From Chitinophagaceae bacterium (lineage in GTDB: Bacteria; Bacteroidota; Bacteroidia; Chitinophagales; Chitinophagaceae): DNA of 64,000 bases. The notes under the pieces were generated by a model that was not told the DNA's origin, made no database searches, and saw nothing but the letters and a program-made list of their open reading frames with translations. The stretch lies in the NCBI GenBank assembly GCA_016715365.1, contig JADKAM010000012.1, forward strand, positions 34,785 through 98,784, given 5' to 3'. Each line of letters begins with the position of its first letter. Positions within the stretch are counted from its first letter, which is position 1. A program made the translations under genes and the position numbers. Positions 51,357 to 59,460 of this stretch are shown one piece after another.

Positions 51357-51899
51357 TTGTTTTATTTTTCATATTTGCCTAAAGATAAGATCATAGCGTT
51401 CATCGATTTTTTTTACCCGCCGTTCCGTAGGTTTATGCCGGAACAGACTTTTCGTTATGCAGCCTGTGGTGGCGCCAATACTGTATTAGGACTGGCCCTT
51501 TTTAAAATATTACTGGTGTATGTTTTTAAACATGAAAATGTTGAACTGGGATTTTATACTTTAAAGCCACACAACGCCGCCCTCTTCGTTTCCTTTTGTG
51601 TAAACTTTGCGGTTGGTTTTTTGCTGATGCGGTACGTAGTATTTGTAGATTCTAATTTAAGAGGAAGGATACAGCTTTTCAGGTACGGTTTATCATTTGT
51701 GTTTAACCTTGCACTCAACTATTTTATTCTGAAGATATTTGTAGAGATTTTTGGCTGGTGGCCATTCCTAAGCCAGTGTCTCACTACGGTTATTATTGTA
51801 ACTATCAGTTATCTTAGTCAGAAACATTTTAGTTTCAAAACGAAGGCAAATAATGAACAGGGAAGTAATAACGAACAAGGAACAAGGAATACCGAATAA
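51357..51899 (+). CDS. GtrA family membrane protein (start uncertain; C-terminus extended by heptamer repeats)
   Basis: FRYAACGGANT, four TMs, RYVVF, KHFSF. The tail NNEQGSNNEQGTRNTE is encoded by GAACAAG-like repeats. Confidence 0.85.
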   Translation: MFYFSYLPKDKIIAFIDFFYPPFRRFMPEQTFRYAACGGANTVLGLALFKILLVYVFKHENVELGFYTLKPHNAALFVSFCVNFAVGFLLMRYVVFVDSNLRGRIQLFRYGLSFVFNLALNYFILKIFVEIFGWWPFLSQCLTTVIIVTISYLSQKHFSFKTKANNEQGSNNEQGTRNTE

Positions 51900-51926: not shown

Positions 51927-52265
51927 CTAACTCATAACTCCTGACTGTTTATAGTCTTCCCTCACCGGCGTAAACACATCAATCACCTTACAGGCAGTAA
52001 CAGCTTTAGCACCATGTAATACATTGGAAGCAATAAAGGCGCCCATGCCCGGCAGCAGCATTTGTGTTTCACCATTTAATGTAAATTCCATTTCGCCTTC
52101 TAAAACATAGGTCCATTGTTCATGTGGATGGCTGTGTATGGGCGCAATTACACCGGCTTCAAGTGTTACACATCCAAATGTAGATTGCGTTGAATGTTCC
52201 ATCGCACTTTGTATACCCGGAAATATGGTTGATTTGCTTTTTGTATTGTAGTTGATGAAAGACAT
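51927..52265 (-). CDS. Cupin domain protein
   Basis: PIHSHPHEQWTYVLEG, SNVLHG, IDVFTPVREDY. Confidence 0.92.
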   Translation of the reverse strand: MSFINYNTKSKSTIFPGIQSAMEHSTQSTFGCVTLEAGVIAPIHSHPHEQWTYVLEGEMEFTLNGETQMLLPGMGAFIASNVLHGAKAVTACKVIDVFTPVREDYKQSGVMS

Positions 52266-52440: not shown

Positions 52441-52617
52441 ATGCATTTTTATTTGTTATACATCGATCCCGGAAGCGGCAGTTATATTCTGCAGATGATC
52501 ATTGCTGCGGTGCTGGGCGTTAGTTTTTTCTTTAAAAGCTTCTGGTATAATATAAAAGCATTTTTTACCGGTAAAAAAGCAAAGAAGGAAGACGAAGAAA
52601 AAGATAAGGTTGAGTAA
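52441..52617 (+). CDS. Unannotated 58-aa single-TM protein with YIDPGSGS motif
   Basis: Hand translation: MHFYLLYIDPGSGSYILQMIIAAVLGVSFFFKSFWYNIKAFFTGKKAKKEDEEKDKVE. Below the ORF-track cutoff; 32 nt upstream of the NoeA-like gene. Confidence 0.85.
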   Translation: MHFYLLYIDPGSGSYILQMIIAAVLGVSFFFKSFWYNIKAFFTGKKAKKEDEEKDKVE

Positions 52618-52649: not shown

Positions 52650-54026
52650 ATGCAAACCAATCCAGCTTCATACAGAGATAACAGCGGTTTTGTTTTTAAG
52701 CAGAATGATAAAGTGTACCGCTATATCTATGCCAACTATGAACCGCATTATCTGCAATTGATGAACAGCGGACTGTATGATGAACTGGTAAAAATCAAAA
52801 AACTGATTCCCCACGAGGAAATTGCTGATAAAGCAAATTTTGATTTTGCTGATGGAAGAATACTCCTGCCAGTGCAGATTCCCTTTATCAGCTATCCCTA
52901 CGAATGGAGTTTTGATATGTGGAAGGATGCTGCCCTGCTTACCCTGCAGATAGCCCTGGTATCTTTAAAAAAAGAAATGATATTGAAAGATGCCACACCT
53001 TTTAATATTCAGTTCATAAATGGTAAACCGGTTTTTATTGATACACTCTCTTTTGAAAATTACGAAGCCGGCAAACCCTGGATCGCTTACCACCAGTTCA
53101 GCGAATGTTTTTTAGCGCCGCTGCTGCTGATGCATTATTGCCACCCCGATACCAATAAATTGTTTACGGTTTATCCCAACGGTATACCCATGGATGTGCT
53201 GGTGCGTTTGTTGCCAAAAAGTTCGAAGTGGAACATGGGTACATTCCTGCATGTGCACCTGCAGGCAAAATTTGCCCAAAGGACCCTGCGGGCTGGTAAG
53301 CAAAAACAACAAATAAAAACCCAAAACAATTTTTCGAGGCAAAAATTAGAATTGTTGTTAAAAGGGCTCGAAAGTTTTGTGCAAAAATTATCACCCAAAA
53401 ATGTAAAAACAACCTGGGATGATTATTATACCGATACGATTTTAGGCGATGATTATCTCGCCGCCAAAACAACATTGGTAAAATCCTTCAGCAATTTTGT
53501 TGATTATAAAAGCGTGATAGACCTCGGTGCCAACGACGGGCATTTCAGCCTGCTTTTTGTCGACAATAAAAATGTAATTGCTACCGATGCGGATAGTAAT
53601 TGCATCAACGATCTCTATCTTAAAATAAGAAAGGAAAGCATCTCCAATATATTGCCGCTGGTAAATGATCTTACCACGCCTTCACCAGCTATTGGCTGGG
53701 CCAATACAGAACGGGAATCTATCACCACAAGATTAAAAGCCGATATGGTTCTTGCCCTGGCATTGGTACATCACCTGGCCATTGCTAAAAATATTCCTTT
53801 ACATTTTATTGCTGATTGGTTGCGCCCCATGGGGGAGCACCTTATCATTGAATTTGTACCCAAGGATGATGAAAAAGTAAAACTGCTTTTGCAGAACCGT
53901 AAAGATATTTTTGATAATTACAGCCTGGAGAATTTCAGATCCATCTTCGCCGGGAAATATAAAATAGTGAGAGAAGAAAAAGTGGGCAATACCAACCGCA
54001 TTTTATTTTTAATGACACGCAAATAA
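52650..54026 (+). CDS. NoeA-like protein: kinase-like N-terminal domain plus class I SAM methyltransferase
   Basis: SYRDNSGFV, ISYPYEW, LKDATPFNI (catalytic-loop-like), FIDTLSF (DFG-like), VIDLGANDG (SAM motif I), LALVHHL. Confidence 0.78.
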   Translation: MQTNPASYRDNSGFVFKQNDKVYRYIYANYEPHYLQLMNSGLYDELVKIKKLIPHEEIADKANFDFADGRILLPVQIPFISYPYEWSFDMWKDAALLTLQIALVSLKKEMILKDATPFNIQFINGKPVFIDTLSFENYEAGKPWIAYHQFSECFLAPLLLMHYCHPDTNKLFTVYPNGIPMDVLVRLLPKSSKWNMGTFLHVHLQAKFAQRTLRAGKQKQQIKTQNNFSRQKLELLLKGLESFVQKLSPKNVKTTWDDYYTDTILGDDYLAAKTTLVKSFSNFVDYKSVIDLGANDGHFSLLFVDNKNVIATDADSNCINDLYLKIRKESISNILPLVNDLTTPSPAIGWANTERESITTRLKADMVLALALVHHLAIAKNIPLHFIADWLRPMGEHLIIEFVPKDDEKVKLLLQNRKDIFDNYSLENFRSIFAGKYKIVREEKVGNTNRILFLMTRK

Positions 54027-55522
54027 TGGACCTGCTTAAAAAAATACCTTTCTTTTTATTGTTACTGGCTGTGTTCTTTTGCCTGCACGGCAGTGTAGAG
54101 AACTATGGTTACCTCAATGTGTACGAAGTGATGGAAGTGGGCGGCATCATCATTGTATGTTTAGCTGTATCCTTTGGCTTAATATGGCTCATTACTAAAG
54201 ATCACTTCTTCGCAGCATTACTCACATTTTTTATAGCGCTCTGGTATTTATTCTTTGGTGCCATACACGATCTGATAAAAACAACTTCATTCTTACAGTT
54301 CCTGCAATCTTATACGGTGTTGCTGCAGGTATTACTGGTTGTAAACATCCTTGTTGCCTGGTGGTTAAAAAGAAGTAAACAGCTTTATCAAAAACTGTTT
54401 CTTTACCTGAATGTGCTTTTCATTATATTTTGTGTGTCGGATATTGTTTTGCTGGTTAGCAAAGCTGCCACTTATAAAGAGATTGCTTATCCCAATCCGG
54501 TTGCATTCGATCAGTCTAAAGTAACAGCAAAACCCAATGTTTATTTTTTGCTGTTTGATGAATACGCCGGATACAAAAGCCTGAACGATAGTTTTCATTA
54601 TAAGAACGACAGCTTTTACAATTTTTTAAAGCAGGAAAAGTTTGAGGTGTTGCCCACATTTTCCAATTACGATTTTACGCCCTTCAGCATGTCGTCTATT
54701 TTAAACATGCAGTATGTGCCGGAAAATTATAATCGCAATCAGCTTACACAGCCCGATGTACAGCACCGCTTTGGTGAAATCCGCAATGCACAGGTGCCTG
54801 CCATTTTTAAATCGATGGGGTACAGCATTGTAAATAATTCCATCTTCGATATTAAAGGCCACCCGGCACTGTATCAGTCAAACGGATTATTTCCCATTCA
54901 TGCAGAACTGCTCACCAATAAAATATTTCACAACCGCCTTTTAAAAAATATAGGCTGGTGGCTTGTTACCGGCAGGTTTACCATCAATTTTTTAAAGGAG
55001 CATTACATGTACCGCAAAGATGCCTACAATCGCCAGGTAGAAAAAAGACTGCTGGAGGCTGCAGCAACACCTGCAATAAAACCCAGGTTCTGGTATGCTC
55101 ATTTTTTACTGCCGCACGGGCAGTTTTACCGCGATAGTTCCGGGGCTTTGAATTCTGCAGAAAAAATACTCAACCTTAAATACCTGGCCGATAAATCCCT
55201 GTACCTTTCTTATTTAAAATACAGCAACAATATTATTAAGGAGCTGGTAATAAAGATCAACACCAACGATCCGAATGCCATCGTCATCATCATGAGCGAC
55301 CACGGTTTTTACGATTACGATAATCCCGGCGATTACAACCCGTATAATTGTGATAATATCTGCTTTGTAAAAGCGCCCAATAATAACCCGCTGTTTTATA
55401 ATACACAGCTCAGCAATGTCAACGTCTTGCGCCACCTGTTTAATAACCAGTTTGGGCAAAACCTGGCTTATGTAAAAGACAGCACGGTATATGTTATTGA
55501 AGACCCGGCTGTGCTGCGGTAA
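54026..55522 (+). CDS. Membrane sulfatase/alkaline-phosphatase-superfamily transferase (NoeB-like)
   Basis: Five N-terminal TMs, KPNVYFLLFDEY, SNYDFTPFS, YAHFLLPH, IIMSDHG. Overlaps the upstream stop by 1 nt. Confidence 0.8.
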   Translation: MDLLKKIPFFLLLLAVFFCLHGSVENYGYLNVYEVMEVGGIIIVCLAVSFGLIWLITKDHFFAALLTFFIALWYLFFGAIHDLIKTTSFLQFLQSYTVLLQVLLVVNILVAWWLKRSKQLYQKLFLYLNVLFIIFCVSDIVLLVSKAATYKEIAYPNPVAFDQSKVTAKPNVYFLLFDEYAGYKSLNDSFHYKNDSFYNFLKQEKFEVLPTFSNYDFTPFSMSSILNMQYVPENYNRNQLTQPDVQHRFGEIRNAQVPAIFKSMGYSIVNNSIFDIKGHPALYQSNGLFPIHAELLTNKIFHNRLLKNIGWWLVTGRFTINFLKEHYMYRKDAYNRQVEKRLLEAAATPAIKPRFWYAHFLLPHGQFYRDSSGALNSAEKILNLKYLADKSLYLSYLKYSNNIIKELVIKINTNDPNAIVIIMSDHGFYDYDNPGDYNPYNCDNICFVKAPNNNPLFYNTQLSNVNVLRHLFNNQFGQNLAYVKDSTVYVIEDPAVLR

Positions 55523-57739: not shown

Positions 57740-57779
57740 AAGCCAGACTTACTTAATTGTAGGTGCTGGCTTTTTATTT
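57740..57779 (+). terminator. dnaK terminator
   Basis: AAGCCAG(ac)TTAC-ttaatt-GTAG(gtg)CTGGCTTTTT. Confidence 0.75.
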
Positions 57780-57813
57780 AAAAAACTATTTGGTAGCAAT
57801 AAAATTAACCGAC

Positions 57814-58646
57814 ATGAAAATATTTATAAGTTGGTCTGGTGAGAGAAGCCACAAAGTTGCAGAACTGTTGAATAATATGGGTCCAGTGTGTTTTGCAAGC
57901 AGTAAATCCGTGGCTATCTAGTAAGGATATTGATAAAGGATCTTTATGGTTTTCTGAGATTACTACTCAATTGGCTAATACACATAATGGGATTGTTTGT
58001 CTTACAAAAGCGAATGCAAATAATCCATGGGTATTATTTGAAGCAGGGGCTTTAGCAAAAGGCTTATCATCTAATCGAGTTTTTACTTTATTAATTGATT
58101 TAGTACCCAACGATGTTAAAGATCCTCTTGCTCAGTTTAATCATACTTCACCCACTAAAAGCGGAATTTATCAGCTTATAAGAACAATTAATAATGGTTT
58201 AGAGGAGCAAGCTTTAACCGAAAATATTTTATCAAATGTATTTGAAACTTATGCCACAATTTGAAAAAGAGTTTAAAGAAATACTTAATTCTACACCTTC
58301 AGAGGAAGTTACTATAGAAAGACCTAAAGATGAATTACTAGATGAAATATTATATTCTGTAAGAGGGATTGATAAAAGGCTTAGAAAAATTGAAGAACCA
58401 GGGTATTTGAATCCTTATCGTATTCAGTTTATGGGAGGAGGGGGAGCACGTCTGGCATCTCACTTGAGGCCAATTGAAGATCTAAATCTTAGTGTCAGGG
58501 CTTTTAATGTTTTAAAAATTAATAGAATTAACACTATTGAAGAATTAATGCTTACAGATTTGGAGCTTTTAGAAAATTGTGGAACTAAATCGAAGGAAGA
58601 ACTTAAGATAATGATTGAAAAAATAAGGAATAATGATTGGTCATAA
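57814..58646 (+). pseudogene. TIR-domain protein fused to an RNA polymerase alpha-CTD-like domain; two frameshifts (~57875 and ~58248)
   Basis: ATG 57814 MKIFISWSGERSHKVAELL; next frame W(V)QCVLQAVNPWLSSKDIDKG...WVLFEAGAL; third frame PQFEKEFKEI...RPIEDLNLSVRAFNVLKINRINTIEEL...CGTKSKEEL. Confidence 0.82.
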
Positions 58647-58674
58647 AATATCAGCTTCGACGCTGGTGCCCCCA

Positions 58675-58741
58675 CTTCGCCGCTGTTGGCATTACGTAAG
58701 CTCACTCTCGCCGTTGTTGCGCCTCTGGCTAACAACGATTG
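58675..58741. repeat. 67-nt hairpin element, copy 1
   Basis: 62/67 identical to 58971-59037; contains the bulged hairpin CGTTGTTG(c)GCC-tct-GGC(t)AACAACG. Confidence 0.9.
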
Positions 58742-58750
58742 GCTTGGTTG

Positions 58751-58970
58751 TTATTTACTAAAAGTCATTTGACTCCTATTTTTTTGGCAACCGTTTTAAA
58801 AAGCTCCCAGCCTTTACTACCGTTGTAATAAATTATCCTTTTATTTTCTTTTGCAGAACGGGTATAGCCAAAATCATCAATTTGTATGAGGCCATAAATT
58901 CCTGATATTGTAACAGTATTTCCTTTTATAATTGCTGTTAATCGGCATTGCCCAGGAATATTTGAAAACT
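58751..58970 (-). pseudogene. 5'-truncated paralog of the 59047-59460 gene
   Basis: EFSNIPGQCRLTAIIKG...YYNGSKGWELFKTVA aligns with the 3' half of the neighbour. It starts abruptly at the 67-nt element and has a 1-nt deletion near its end. Confidence 0.85.
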
Positions 58971-59037
58971 CTTCGCCGTTGTTGGCATTACGTAAGCCCA
59001 CTCTCGCCGTTGTTGTGCCTCCGGCCAACAACGATTG
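58971..59037. repeat. 67-nt hairpin element, copy 2
   Basis: See copy 1. Confidence 0.9.
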
Positions 59038-59046
59038 AGCTGTTAG

Positions 59047-59460
59047 CTATTTACTAAAAGTCATTTGCACTCCTAATCTCTCAGCAACCGTTTTCAAAAG
59101 CTCCCAGCCTTTACTACCCTTATAATAAATTATGTTTTGATAATCTTTAGGGGATCTTGTGTAACCAAAATCATCAATCTTTATAAGTCCAAAAATACCA
59201 GTAAGTGTAATGCTTTTTCCTTTTATTACGGCTGTTAAACGGCATTGGCCCGGTATTTTCGAAAACTCCCGGGGATAAGTTGTGAGTGTATCTACATTGT
59301 AATTATCCTTAACTATAAAATCCAGCTCAACCAGAGCAATTTTTACTTTTTTATAAATATCAACGCTGTCATTGAGTGTTACAATTATTTTTGTATCCTC
59401 ATTTTTTTGAGCATTAACCAGAAGTGGCAAAAGAAATAATAAAATGAGCAGCAGTTTCAT
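59047..59460 (-). CDS. Secreted hypothetical protein (137 aa)
   Basis: Signal peptide MKLLLILLFLLPLLVNA/Q; conservation with its paralog supports coding. Confidence 0.8.
   Translation of the reverse strand: MKLLLILLFLLPLLVNAQKNEDTKIIVTLNDSVDIYKKVKIALVELDFIVKDNYNVDTLTTYPREFSKIPGQCRLTAVIKGKSITLTGIFGLIKIDDFGYTRSPKDYQNIIYYKGSKGWELLKTVAERLGVQMTFSK

Follow-up and report, generated by a model that had tools for sequence, protein, structure and literature searches.

What can a protein with a kinase-like half and a methyltransferase half be doing beside a membrane-bound member of the alkaline-phosphatase superfamily? The question is raised by a three-gene cassette in a stretch of 64,000 nucleotides (nt), here called the window, from a Chitinophagaceae bacterium (GenBank assembly GCA_016715365.1, contig JADKAM010000012.1). 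Its open reading frames (ORFs) are co-directional on the + strand and encode a 58-residue membrane microprotein, a 458-residue protein related to rhizobial NoeA and a 498-residue protein related to NoeB (Table 1). The microprotein stop codon and the NoeA-like start codon are 32 nt apart, and the TAA of the NoeA-like gene has one base in common with the ATG of the NoeB-like gene (TAATG, 1-nt overlap). In identity and architecture, this cassette is very probably the Chitinophagaceae copy of a widespread accessory trio of microprotein, NoeA and NoeB. The trio is the same as the (71-aa ORF)-noeA-noeB segment of the n5 operon of Sinorhizobium and as Lani_1193-1194-1195 of Legionella anisa.

A first-pass annotation, made from the letters of the window, had put the locus forward as a candidate new surface-modification pathway. 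This novelty did not hold up. The family, its small neighbour, its NoeB neighbour and a comparison with the enzyme WbdD had already been published (Krysinska et al. 2022, PMC9758233). The cassette is thus a new copy of a computationally described family and no new kind of system.

The NoeA-like protein belongs to a large family of fixed fusions

Kinship with NoeA was seen directly. A tblastn search against plasmids aligned residues 6-457 with noeA in 57 pSymA records of Sinorhizobium (31.6% identity, E 3e-50) and gave further matches in Rhizobium, Singulisphaera, Gemmatirosa and Novosphingobium. The protein has a very large family: word-indexed matches numbered more than 8,000, and an exhaustive search returned 5,704 cluster representatives at E<=0.001, of which 1,559 were retained at E<=1e-30. 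Almost all of the best 150 listed members aligned over their full length, which indicates that the kinase-like and methyltransferase halves form a fixed fusion.

Krysinska et al. described Lani_1194 (471 residues) as a member of a novel kinase family homologous to NoeA. It is an atypical kinase in which Arg replaces Lys72; it keeps the equivalents of D166, N171 and D184 and has no identifiable alpha-C Glu. The family was fused to a class I methyltransferase in 94% of cases. Lani_1193, a small hypothetical neighbour on the same strand, was found in 65% of 816 neighbourhoods, and Lani_1195/NoeB, an alkaline-phosphatase fold with EptA/YejM-like best templates, in 38%. The same authors set the domain architecture against that of the methyl-phosphate capping enzyme WbdD and put the Legionella proteins forward as possible secreted effectors (PMC9758233). 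The cassette in the window has the architecture described for Lani_1193-1194-1195, an equivalence that runs through the NoeA homology reported there and not through direct alignment. Four marks of the NoeA/Lani_1194 family were found in the sequence or the model: NoeA homology, an atypical kinase-like fold, a C-terminal methyltransferase and both neighbours.

The N-terminal domain has a kinase-like fold

The first-pass annotation had pointed to two motifs, KDATPFN and IDTLS, spaced as in kinase-like enzymes. They were located at residues 113-119 and 130-134. D114 and D131 are 17 residues apart, a distance that fits the spacing between catalytic loop and DFG motif in such enzymes. Conservation was evaluated in 56 full-length relatives (37-88% identity) and additionally in 37 N-terminal domains from many phyla, including S. 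meliloti NoeA. D114, N119 and D131 were present without exception in both sets. Among the 56 relatives, K113 was invariant alongside D114, and R24 was invariant as well. R24 stands at the position of the canonical Lys and is the same atypical Arg-for-Lys exchange as in Lani_1194. KDATPFN contains the D-x4-N of the catalytic loop, and IDTLS the Asp equivalent to that of the DFG motif.

Since the Foldseek listing for the full-length model consisted of methyltransferases (see below), residues 1-215 were modelled alone and searched separately. The AlphaFold2 (AF2) model had a mean predicted local distance difference test score (pLDDT) of 90.5 and a predicted TM-score (pTM) of 0.87. In the Foldseek search against the PDB, all 50 best matches were kinase-like folds (E 5e-4 to 3e-3, probability 0.94-1.0), among them PknG, RioK1, PKA, CK2, IRAK4, CaMKII and the small-molecule kinase AmiN. 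TM-scores were modest (0.3-0.5), in line with a minimal kinase core of 215 residues. By sequence, Pfam, NCBIfam and the PDB gave nothing for this domain; fold comparison was what exposed it. Structure prediction, which the first-pass annotation had named as the check on its kinase-like assignment, came out in favour of that assignment.

Could the domain transfer something other than phosphate? It might be a pseudokinase scaffold, or carry out another chemistry such as AMPylation (SelO) or glutamylation (SidJ), so that methylation would be the sole small-group transfer of NoeA. The Arg at the Lys position, the lack of an identifiable alpha-C Glu and the minimal fold with its modest TM-scores would agree with this. 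Dead pseudokinases, however, seldom retain the catalytic D-x4-N and the DFG-type Asp, and here these residues are invariant in all 56 and all 37 sequences. We regard this alternative as very improbable.

The C-terminal half is a class I methyltransferase

Following a helical linker, the C-terminal half is a class I S-adenosylmethionine (SAM) methyltransferase, as had been claimed; its activity is predicted from model and motifs. Pfam Methyltransf_23 matched weakly over residues 285-416 (E 0.0075), and Pfam and NCBIfam showed no other signal in the 458-residue protein. A single-sequence search of the PDB with the whole protein gave no useful match. The Rossmann core spans approximately residues 285-458, with motif I (DLGANDG) at 291-297. 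In the 56 relatives, N295, H374, H375 and E401 were invariant, and D291, G293 and G297 of motif I as well as D315 were nearly so. The full-length AF2 model was two-domain and very confident (pLDDT 93.2, pTM 0.93). Foldseek returned 356 matches at E<=0.001 for it, and the best 50 listed were all methyltransferases.

The top match was the bifunctional kinase-methyltransferase WbdD of E. coli O9a (4azs, E 2.8e-8). Searched against the PDB, the profile of the NoeA-like family found Trm5b, TehB, PMT and WbdD at E 0.0015-0.02, and it met WbdD in the methyltransferase region, chain residues 67-178. The whole-model match is therefore presumably one of methyltransferase to methyltransferase as well.

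WbdD places methyl-phosphate on a glycan and, like the NoeA-like protein, combines a kinase fold with a class I methyltransferase in one polypeptide. This suggests an alternative in which NoeA would act in the cytoplasm on a lipid-linked glycan and put first a phosphate and then a methyl group on its non-reducing end, as a chain terminator or export tag. NoeB would work separately and, with bulk phospholipid as donor, place an ordinary phospho-form, for example phosphoethanolamine or phosphoglycerol, on that polymer or on a different one. No structure matched the full-length model better than WbdD, which also gave the longest methyltransferase stretch among the profile matches (query 282-403, E 0.013-0.02), and the same parallel was drawn in PMC9758233. 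Near one cassette elsewhere lies a gene for a Wzt-type ABC ATPase with a Wzt_C cap-binding domain (one Pfam-scanned locus, L067), and genes for GT2, GT1, GT9, Wzy_C, Capsule_synth and ManC proteins lie near others.

The differences are nevertheless considerable. The methyltransferase of WbdD is N-terminal, whereas the NoeA-like protein has the order kinase, then methyltransferase. WbdD continues into a coiled-coil ruler and a C-terminal membrane anchor; the NoeA-like chain, in contrast, ends with the methyltransferase and has neither. WbdD works without a microprotein or an alkaline-phosphatase-fold partner, and its sequence similarity is marginal and confined to the methyltransferase. In the window, neither wzm/wzt nor polymannose genes adjoin the cassette, and glycan genes are a small minority of the neighbours elsewhere. 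Capping would also leave unexplained why NoeA is so tightly coupled to NoeB and the microprotein. Taken together, capping of this kind appears unlikely. An assignment of the NoeA-like protein to the class of WbdD-type O-antigen chain terminators was rejected on domain order, anchor and Wzt partner.

The NoeB-like protein resembles phospho-form transferases

The downstream gene had been described in the first-pass annotation as a multi-pass membrane enzyme of LtaS/EptA-like layout, and this description was borne out. Hydropathy predicts five transmembrane (TM) helices at approximately residues 7-25, 38-56, 62-80, 96-114 and 126-144. Lys and Arg are concentrated at the N-terminus and in loops 57-61 and 115-125. 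By the positive-inside rule this predicts an N-in, C-out topology with the catalytic domain outside. Pfam Sulfatase (PF00884) matched marginally over threshold (E 5.8e-6). The family profile found sulfatases in the PDB (E 2.9e-6), and the single-sequence search found EptC weakly (E 5.8).

Close homologues occur in Chitinophagaceae and Ferruginibacter. In sets of 26 to 63 homologues drawn from many phyla, D178, T218, H359, P363, H364, D425 and G427 were invariant, S221 nearly so, and H426 was kept in 87%. By analogy with MCR-1, EptA and LtaS, we take D178 to be a metal ligand, T218 the Thr nucleophile, and H359, H364 and D425-H426 the His and Asp-His set of phospho-form transferases. This combination is typical of EptA, LtaS, OpgB and BcsG, not of sulfatases. 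A formylglycine motif (C/S-x-P-x-R) was sought in the 498-residue protein and not found, and a Thr stands at the nucleophile position; an assignment as sulfatase was therefore ruled out. The five TM helices, the outward alkaline-phosphatase fold, the acidic ligand, the Thr, the His and the Asp-His pair are features in common with EptA/MCR-1, LtaS, OpgB and BcsG. The similarity is at superfamily level only, and none of these enzymes has a kinase-methyltransferase partner.

Pairwise BLAST of the NoeB-like protein with S. meliloti NoeB was not significant (E 0.26). A hidden Markov model (HMM) of the NoeB-like protein and 59 homologues, built with the rhizobial sequence left out, scored S. meliloti NoeB at E 2.4e-18 over profile positions 74-463. 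The D, T..S, HxxxPH and DHG motifs were common to both in this alignment. A neighbour of NoeA in Singulisphaera matches the NoeB-like protein directly (E 2e-15). The NoeA/NoeB kinship put forward in the first-pass annotation thus holds for both proteins.

The trio recurs as a self-contained cassette

Linkage was examined in 82 loci from species-representative genomes of many phyla, including Bacteroidota, Chloroflexota, Planctomycetota, Gammaproteobacteria, Acidobacteriota, Armatimonadota, Bacillota and Saccharibacteria. A microprotein gene adjoins the NoeA gene in approximately 65-70 of them, usually abutting or overlapping its start. A NoeB-like gene was detected by the HMM in 66 of the 82 loci, in 53 of them directly downstream on the same strand. 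Neighbours outside the trio were heterogeneous: among 145 neighbours at 43 diverse loci, no Pfam family occurred more than four times and no partner pathway was enriched. The trio is a self-contained cassette amid these neighbours. It is also accessory and patchy. The cassette was found in 17 of 61 Chitinophagaceae genomes, is absent from other species of the host genus and is present in a single copy in the host genome. M42 peptidase, LuxE-like, UbiA, Lon and BioB genes were considered as partners and rejected, being housekeeping synteny within Chitinophagaceae.

Some loci depart from the simple order. At six loci (L012, L013, L023, L039, L071 and L072), one NoeA gene is followed by NoeB-like paralogues in tandem, two or three in number, which suggests several acceptors or phospho-forms for each kinase-methyltransferase. 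At two loci without NoeB (L065:7636-8478 and L030:4596-5411) a short paralogue of the YidC/Oxa1 family (60KD_IMP) lies just downstream of NoeA, at L065 after the microprotein. A third 60KD_IMP match was counted among the scanned neighbours. Such a paralogue could be a dedicated insertase for an N-out microprotein. At other loci lacking NoeB, a gene for a Wzy_C or Capsule_synth protein is found downstream.

The microprotein is a conserved component

The microprotein reads MHFYLLY-IDPGSGS-YILQMIIAAVLGVSFFF-KSFWYNIKAFFTGKK..., followed by a TM helix and a basic/acidic tail. No Pfam family covers it. A single-sequence phmmer search found a small-ORF homologue in 72 of the 82 loci. In the sequence logo of these 72, the motif was Y (100%), [IL], D (97%), P (99%), G (97%), [ST], G (94%), S (99%), three variable positions and Q (100%); a TM helix and then a basic amphipathic stretch come next. 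In 20 of the 72 homologues, a classical signal peptide ended in A-x-A directly before the invariant Tyr, and 34 had 10 or fewer residues before the Tyr; the other 18 were ambiguous. These N-terminal patterns predict an N-out, C-in peptide with its motif at the outer face. The involvement of a microprotein, suggested in the first-pass annotation, is in keeping with this conserved family and its place beside NoeA, and the data support a core component and not an annotation artefact.

The family also extends to Singulisphaera and S. meliloti. Directly upstream of the NoeA gene, Singulisphaera has ..LVLA-YLDPGSGS.. and S. meliloti ..VPAHA-YLDPGTGS... The annotated order in S. meliloti is nodL, a 71-aa hypothetical ORF, noeA, noeB, corresponding to the nod-box n5 operon (Ardourel et al. 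1995, as cited in PMC9758233). The 71-aa ORF, annotated merely as a hypothetical protein (pSymA, L001:3748-3963), is a member of the microprotein family and has a 23-nt overlap with the start of noeA. The classical n5 operon therefore has a fourth, unnamed gene. The likeness of the Chitinophagaceae cassette to this operon comprises full-length NoeA homology, NoeB through the profile, the upstream microprotein (A-H-A|Y-L-D-P-G-T-G-S in S. meliloti) and the same order. It differs in having neither nodL nor a nod box, in its non-symbiotic host, and in its microprotein, which lacks the signal-peptide-like extension of the S. meliloti protein.

Does the microprotein serve the enzymes, or is it what they modify? 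In the latter case, Y-[IL]-D-P-G-S-G-S would be modified at the outer face by NoeB after signal-peptide removal or N-out insertion, comparable to the pilin Ser modified by PptA, and NoeA would supply or edit the donor or modify the cytoplasmic tail. Seven motif positions are 94-100% conserved across phyla, and the cleavage sites and short N-termini described above would agree with this reading. The microprotein is more tightly linked to NoeA than NoeB is, both in the 82 loci and in the published neighbourhoods (65% versus 38%, PMC9758233), and a YidC-type insertase paralogue stands at two loci with no adjacent NoeB (L065 and L030). The motif, however, is equally kept where no NoeB is nearby, and topology and cleavage are predictions. 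A one-to-one pair of enzyme and substrate genes for a membrane peptide would have no obvious physiological role and, to our knowledge, no precedent. We consider it quite improbable that the microprotein is the substrate.

A proposed membrane machine

The reading that we prefer is a machine at the cytoplasmic membrane. The microprotein, lying with its motif on the outer face and its basic amphipathic tail on the inner side, would tether soluble NoeA to the membrane beside NoeB. This would resemble the BcsE-BcsF-BcsG system, composed of a cytosolic protein, a one-TM microprotein and a membrane transferase, in which BcsF tethers BcsE beside BcsG. At the inner face, NoeA would use ATP and SAM to add a phosphate and a methyl group to an intermediate bound to the membrane. 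NoeB would pass a phosphate-containing group, via covalent phospho-Thr218, to an envelope acceptor outside the cytoplasmic membrane. The group moved by NoeB may be the methylated phospho group from NoeA.

Taken as a whole, the identity of the cassette together with this machine is, on balance and by a narrow measure, probable. The chances that an envelope molecule receives a phospho-form decoration seem evenly poised. A methyl-phospho group made in the cytoplasm and transferred outside the membrane is plausible and would fit all data; the specific methyl-phosphate donor chemistry, suggested by analogy with WbdD, is unlikely.

Several observations weigh against the proposed machine. The kinase-like domain was seen by structure only, with TM-scores of 0.3-0.5 and no sequence match, and it has neither the canonical Lys nor a recognizable alpha-C Glu; its chemistry could for these reasons be a non-phosphate transfer, or its role regulatory. 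At 16 of the 82 loci there is no NoeB-like gene within approximately 6 kb and the microprotein motif is still present, so NoeA and the microprotein may work without NoeB. Glycan-synthesis families make up only about 10% of the 145 neighbours. The outer-face motif is kept more strictly, by the logo of 72 sequences, than a passive tether would require. Ardourel et al. (1995) reportedly saw no alteration of Nod-factor structure in noeA/noeB mutants. A search of the literature after 2021 turned up no functional work on NoeA or NoeB.

The trio is independent of context and occurs in diderm and monoderm phyla, which argues for a ubiquitous substrate, for example a membrane lipid, as an argument rather than as evidence. 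A more specific form of the machine would recycle its donor. Tethered NoeA would phosphorylate diacylglycerol or another membrane lipid and methylate the phosphate, giving a dedicated methyl-phospho-lipid donor in the inner leaflet. After flipping of this donor, NoeB would transfer methyl-phosphate via phospho-Thr218 to an envelope acceptor, and the lipid would return to NoeA. The microprotein itself, through its invariant N-terminus at the outer face, could serve as that acceptor. We hold this version to be distinctly unlikely. If true, it would represent a previously unknown class of envelope modification, account for a trio that travels alone across contexts and envelope types, and settle the function of noeA and noeB.

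Both genes have been known as host-range genes since 1995, and the NoeA-like family reaches across most bacterial phyla. Were the product identified, it would establish a widespread kind of envelope decoration that may play a part in symbiosis and in interactions with hosts. The copy in the window is a clean and compact example, the only one in its genome, from a non-symbiotic member of the Bacteroidota.

Genomic setting and other features of the window

The coordinates of the cassette and of the two genes upstream are given in Table 1. Its flanks consist of housekeeping genes (argS-like, ABC-F and dnaK). The G+C content across the region was unremarkable, and promoter and terminator scans gave counts no higher than chance. 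The first-pass annotation had remarked on a nearby GtrA gene. The gene is indeed present, but it is not a conserved partner: it recurs in the four closest relatives only, and a convergent cupin gene lies between it and the cassette. GtrA was therefore rejected as a member of the system.

Table 1. Positions of the cassette, its domains and proposed functional residues, and adjacent genes in the window
Feature	Position	Strand	Description and basis
Microprotein gene	52441-52617	+	58 aa, single-pass membrane protein, Y-[IL]-D-P-G-[ST]-G-S-x3-Q family
NoeA-like gene	52650-54026	+	458 aa, kinase-like N-domain and SAM methyltransferase
NoeA-like N-domain	52650-53294	+	Residues 1-215, minimal atypical protein-kinase-like fold (AF2, Foldseek)
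Proposed catalytic residues, NoeA-like	R24 52719-52721; D114 52989-52991; N119 53004-53006; D131 53040-53042	+	Invariance
NoeA-like helical linker and C-terminal class I SAM methyltransferase	53295-54026	+	Pfam, AF2, Foldseek, profile against PDB
NoeB-like gene	54026-55522	+	498 aa, TM domain and alkaline-phosphatase-superfamily domain
NoeB-like membrane domain	54026-54460	+	Five predicted TM helices (hydropathy, positive-inside)
NoeB-like extracytoplasmic alkaline-phosphatase-superfamily domain	54461-55522	+	Pfam Sulfatase, invariant residues
Proposed active site, NoeB-like	D178 54557-54559 (presumed metal ligand); T218 54677-54679 (presumed Thr nucleophile); H359/H364 55100-55117; D425-H426 55298-55303	+	Conservation
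GtrA-family gene	51357-51899	+	PF04138, E 3.5e-11
Cupin gene	51927-52265	-	Convergent, between GtrA gene and cassette

Downstream of the cassette, a few further features were noted. Two ORFs overlapping in different frames (57763-57921 and 57893-58264) start with MKIFISWSGERS...; read by eye, this start looks TIR-like, and the two may be one frameshifted gene. A 136-aa ORF that follows them (within 57763-58646) has the C-terminus LSVRAFNVLK...IEELMLTDLELLENCGTKSKEEL, which, likewise by eye, resembles the C-terminal domain of the RNA polymerase alpha subunit. On the - strand, two paralogous small genes (58765-59031 and 59047-59460) have ...IDDFGYTRS...IIYY.GSKGWEL.KTVA... in common, and GATTARV.LRNAN.GE is repeated, as a peptide or DNA segment, in ORFs 58460-58735 and 58765-59031. 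The region 58460-59460 (-), with a low G+C of 0.35, is possibly a local duplication or a repeat element.

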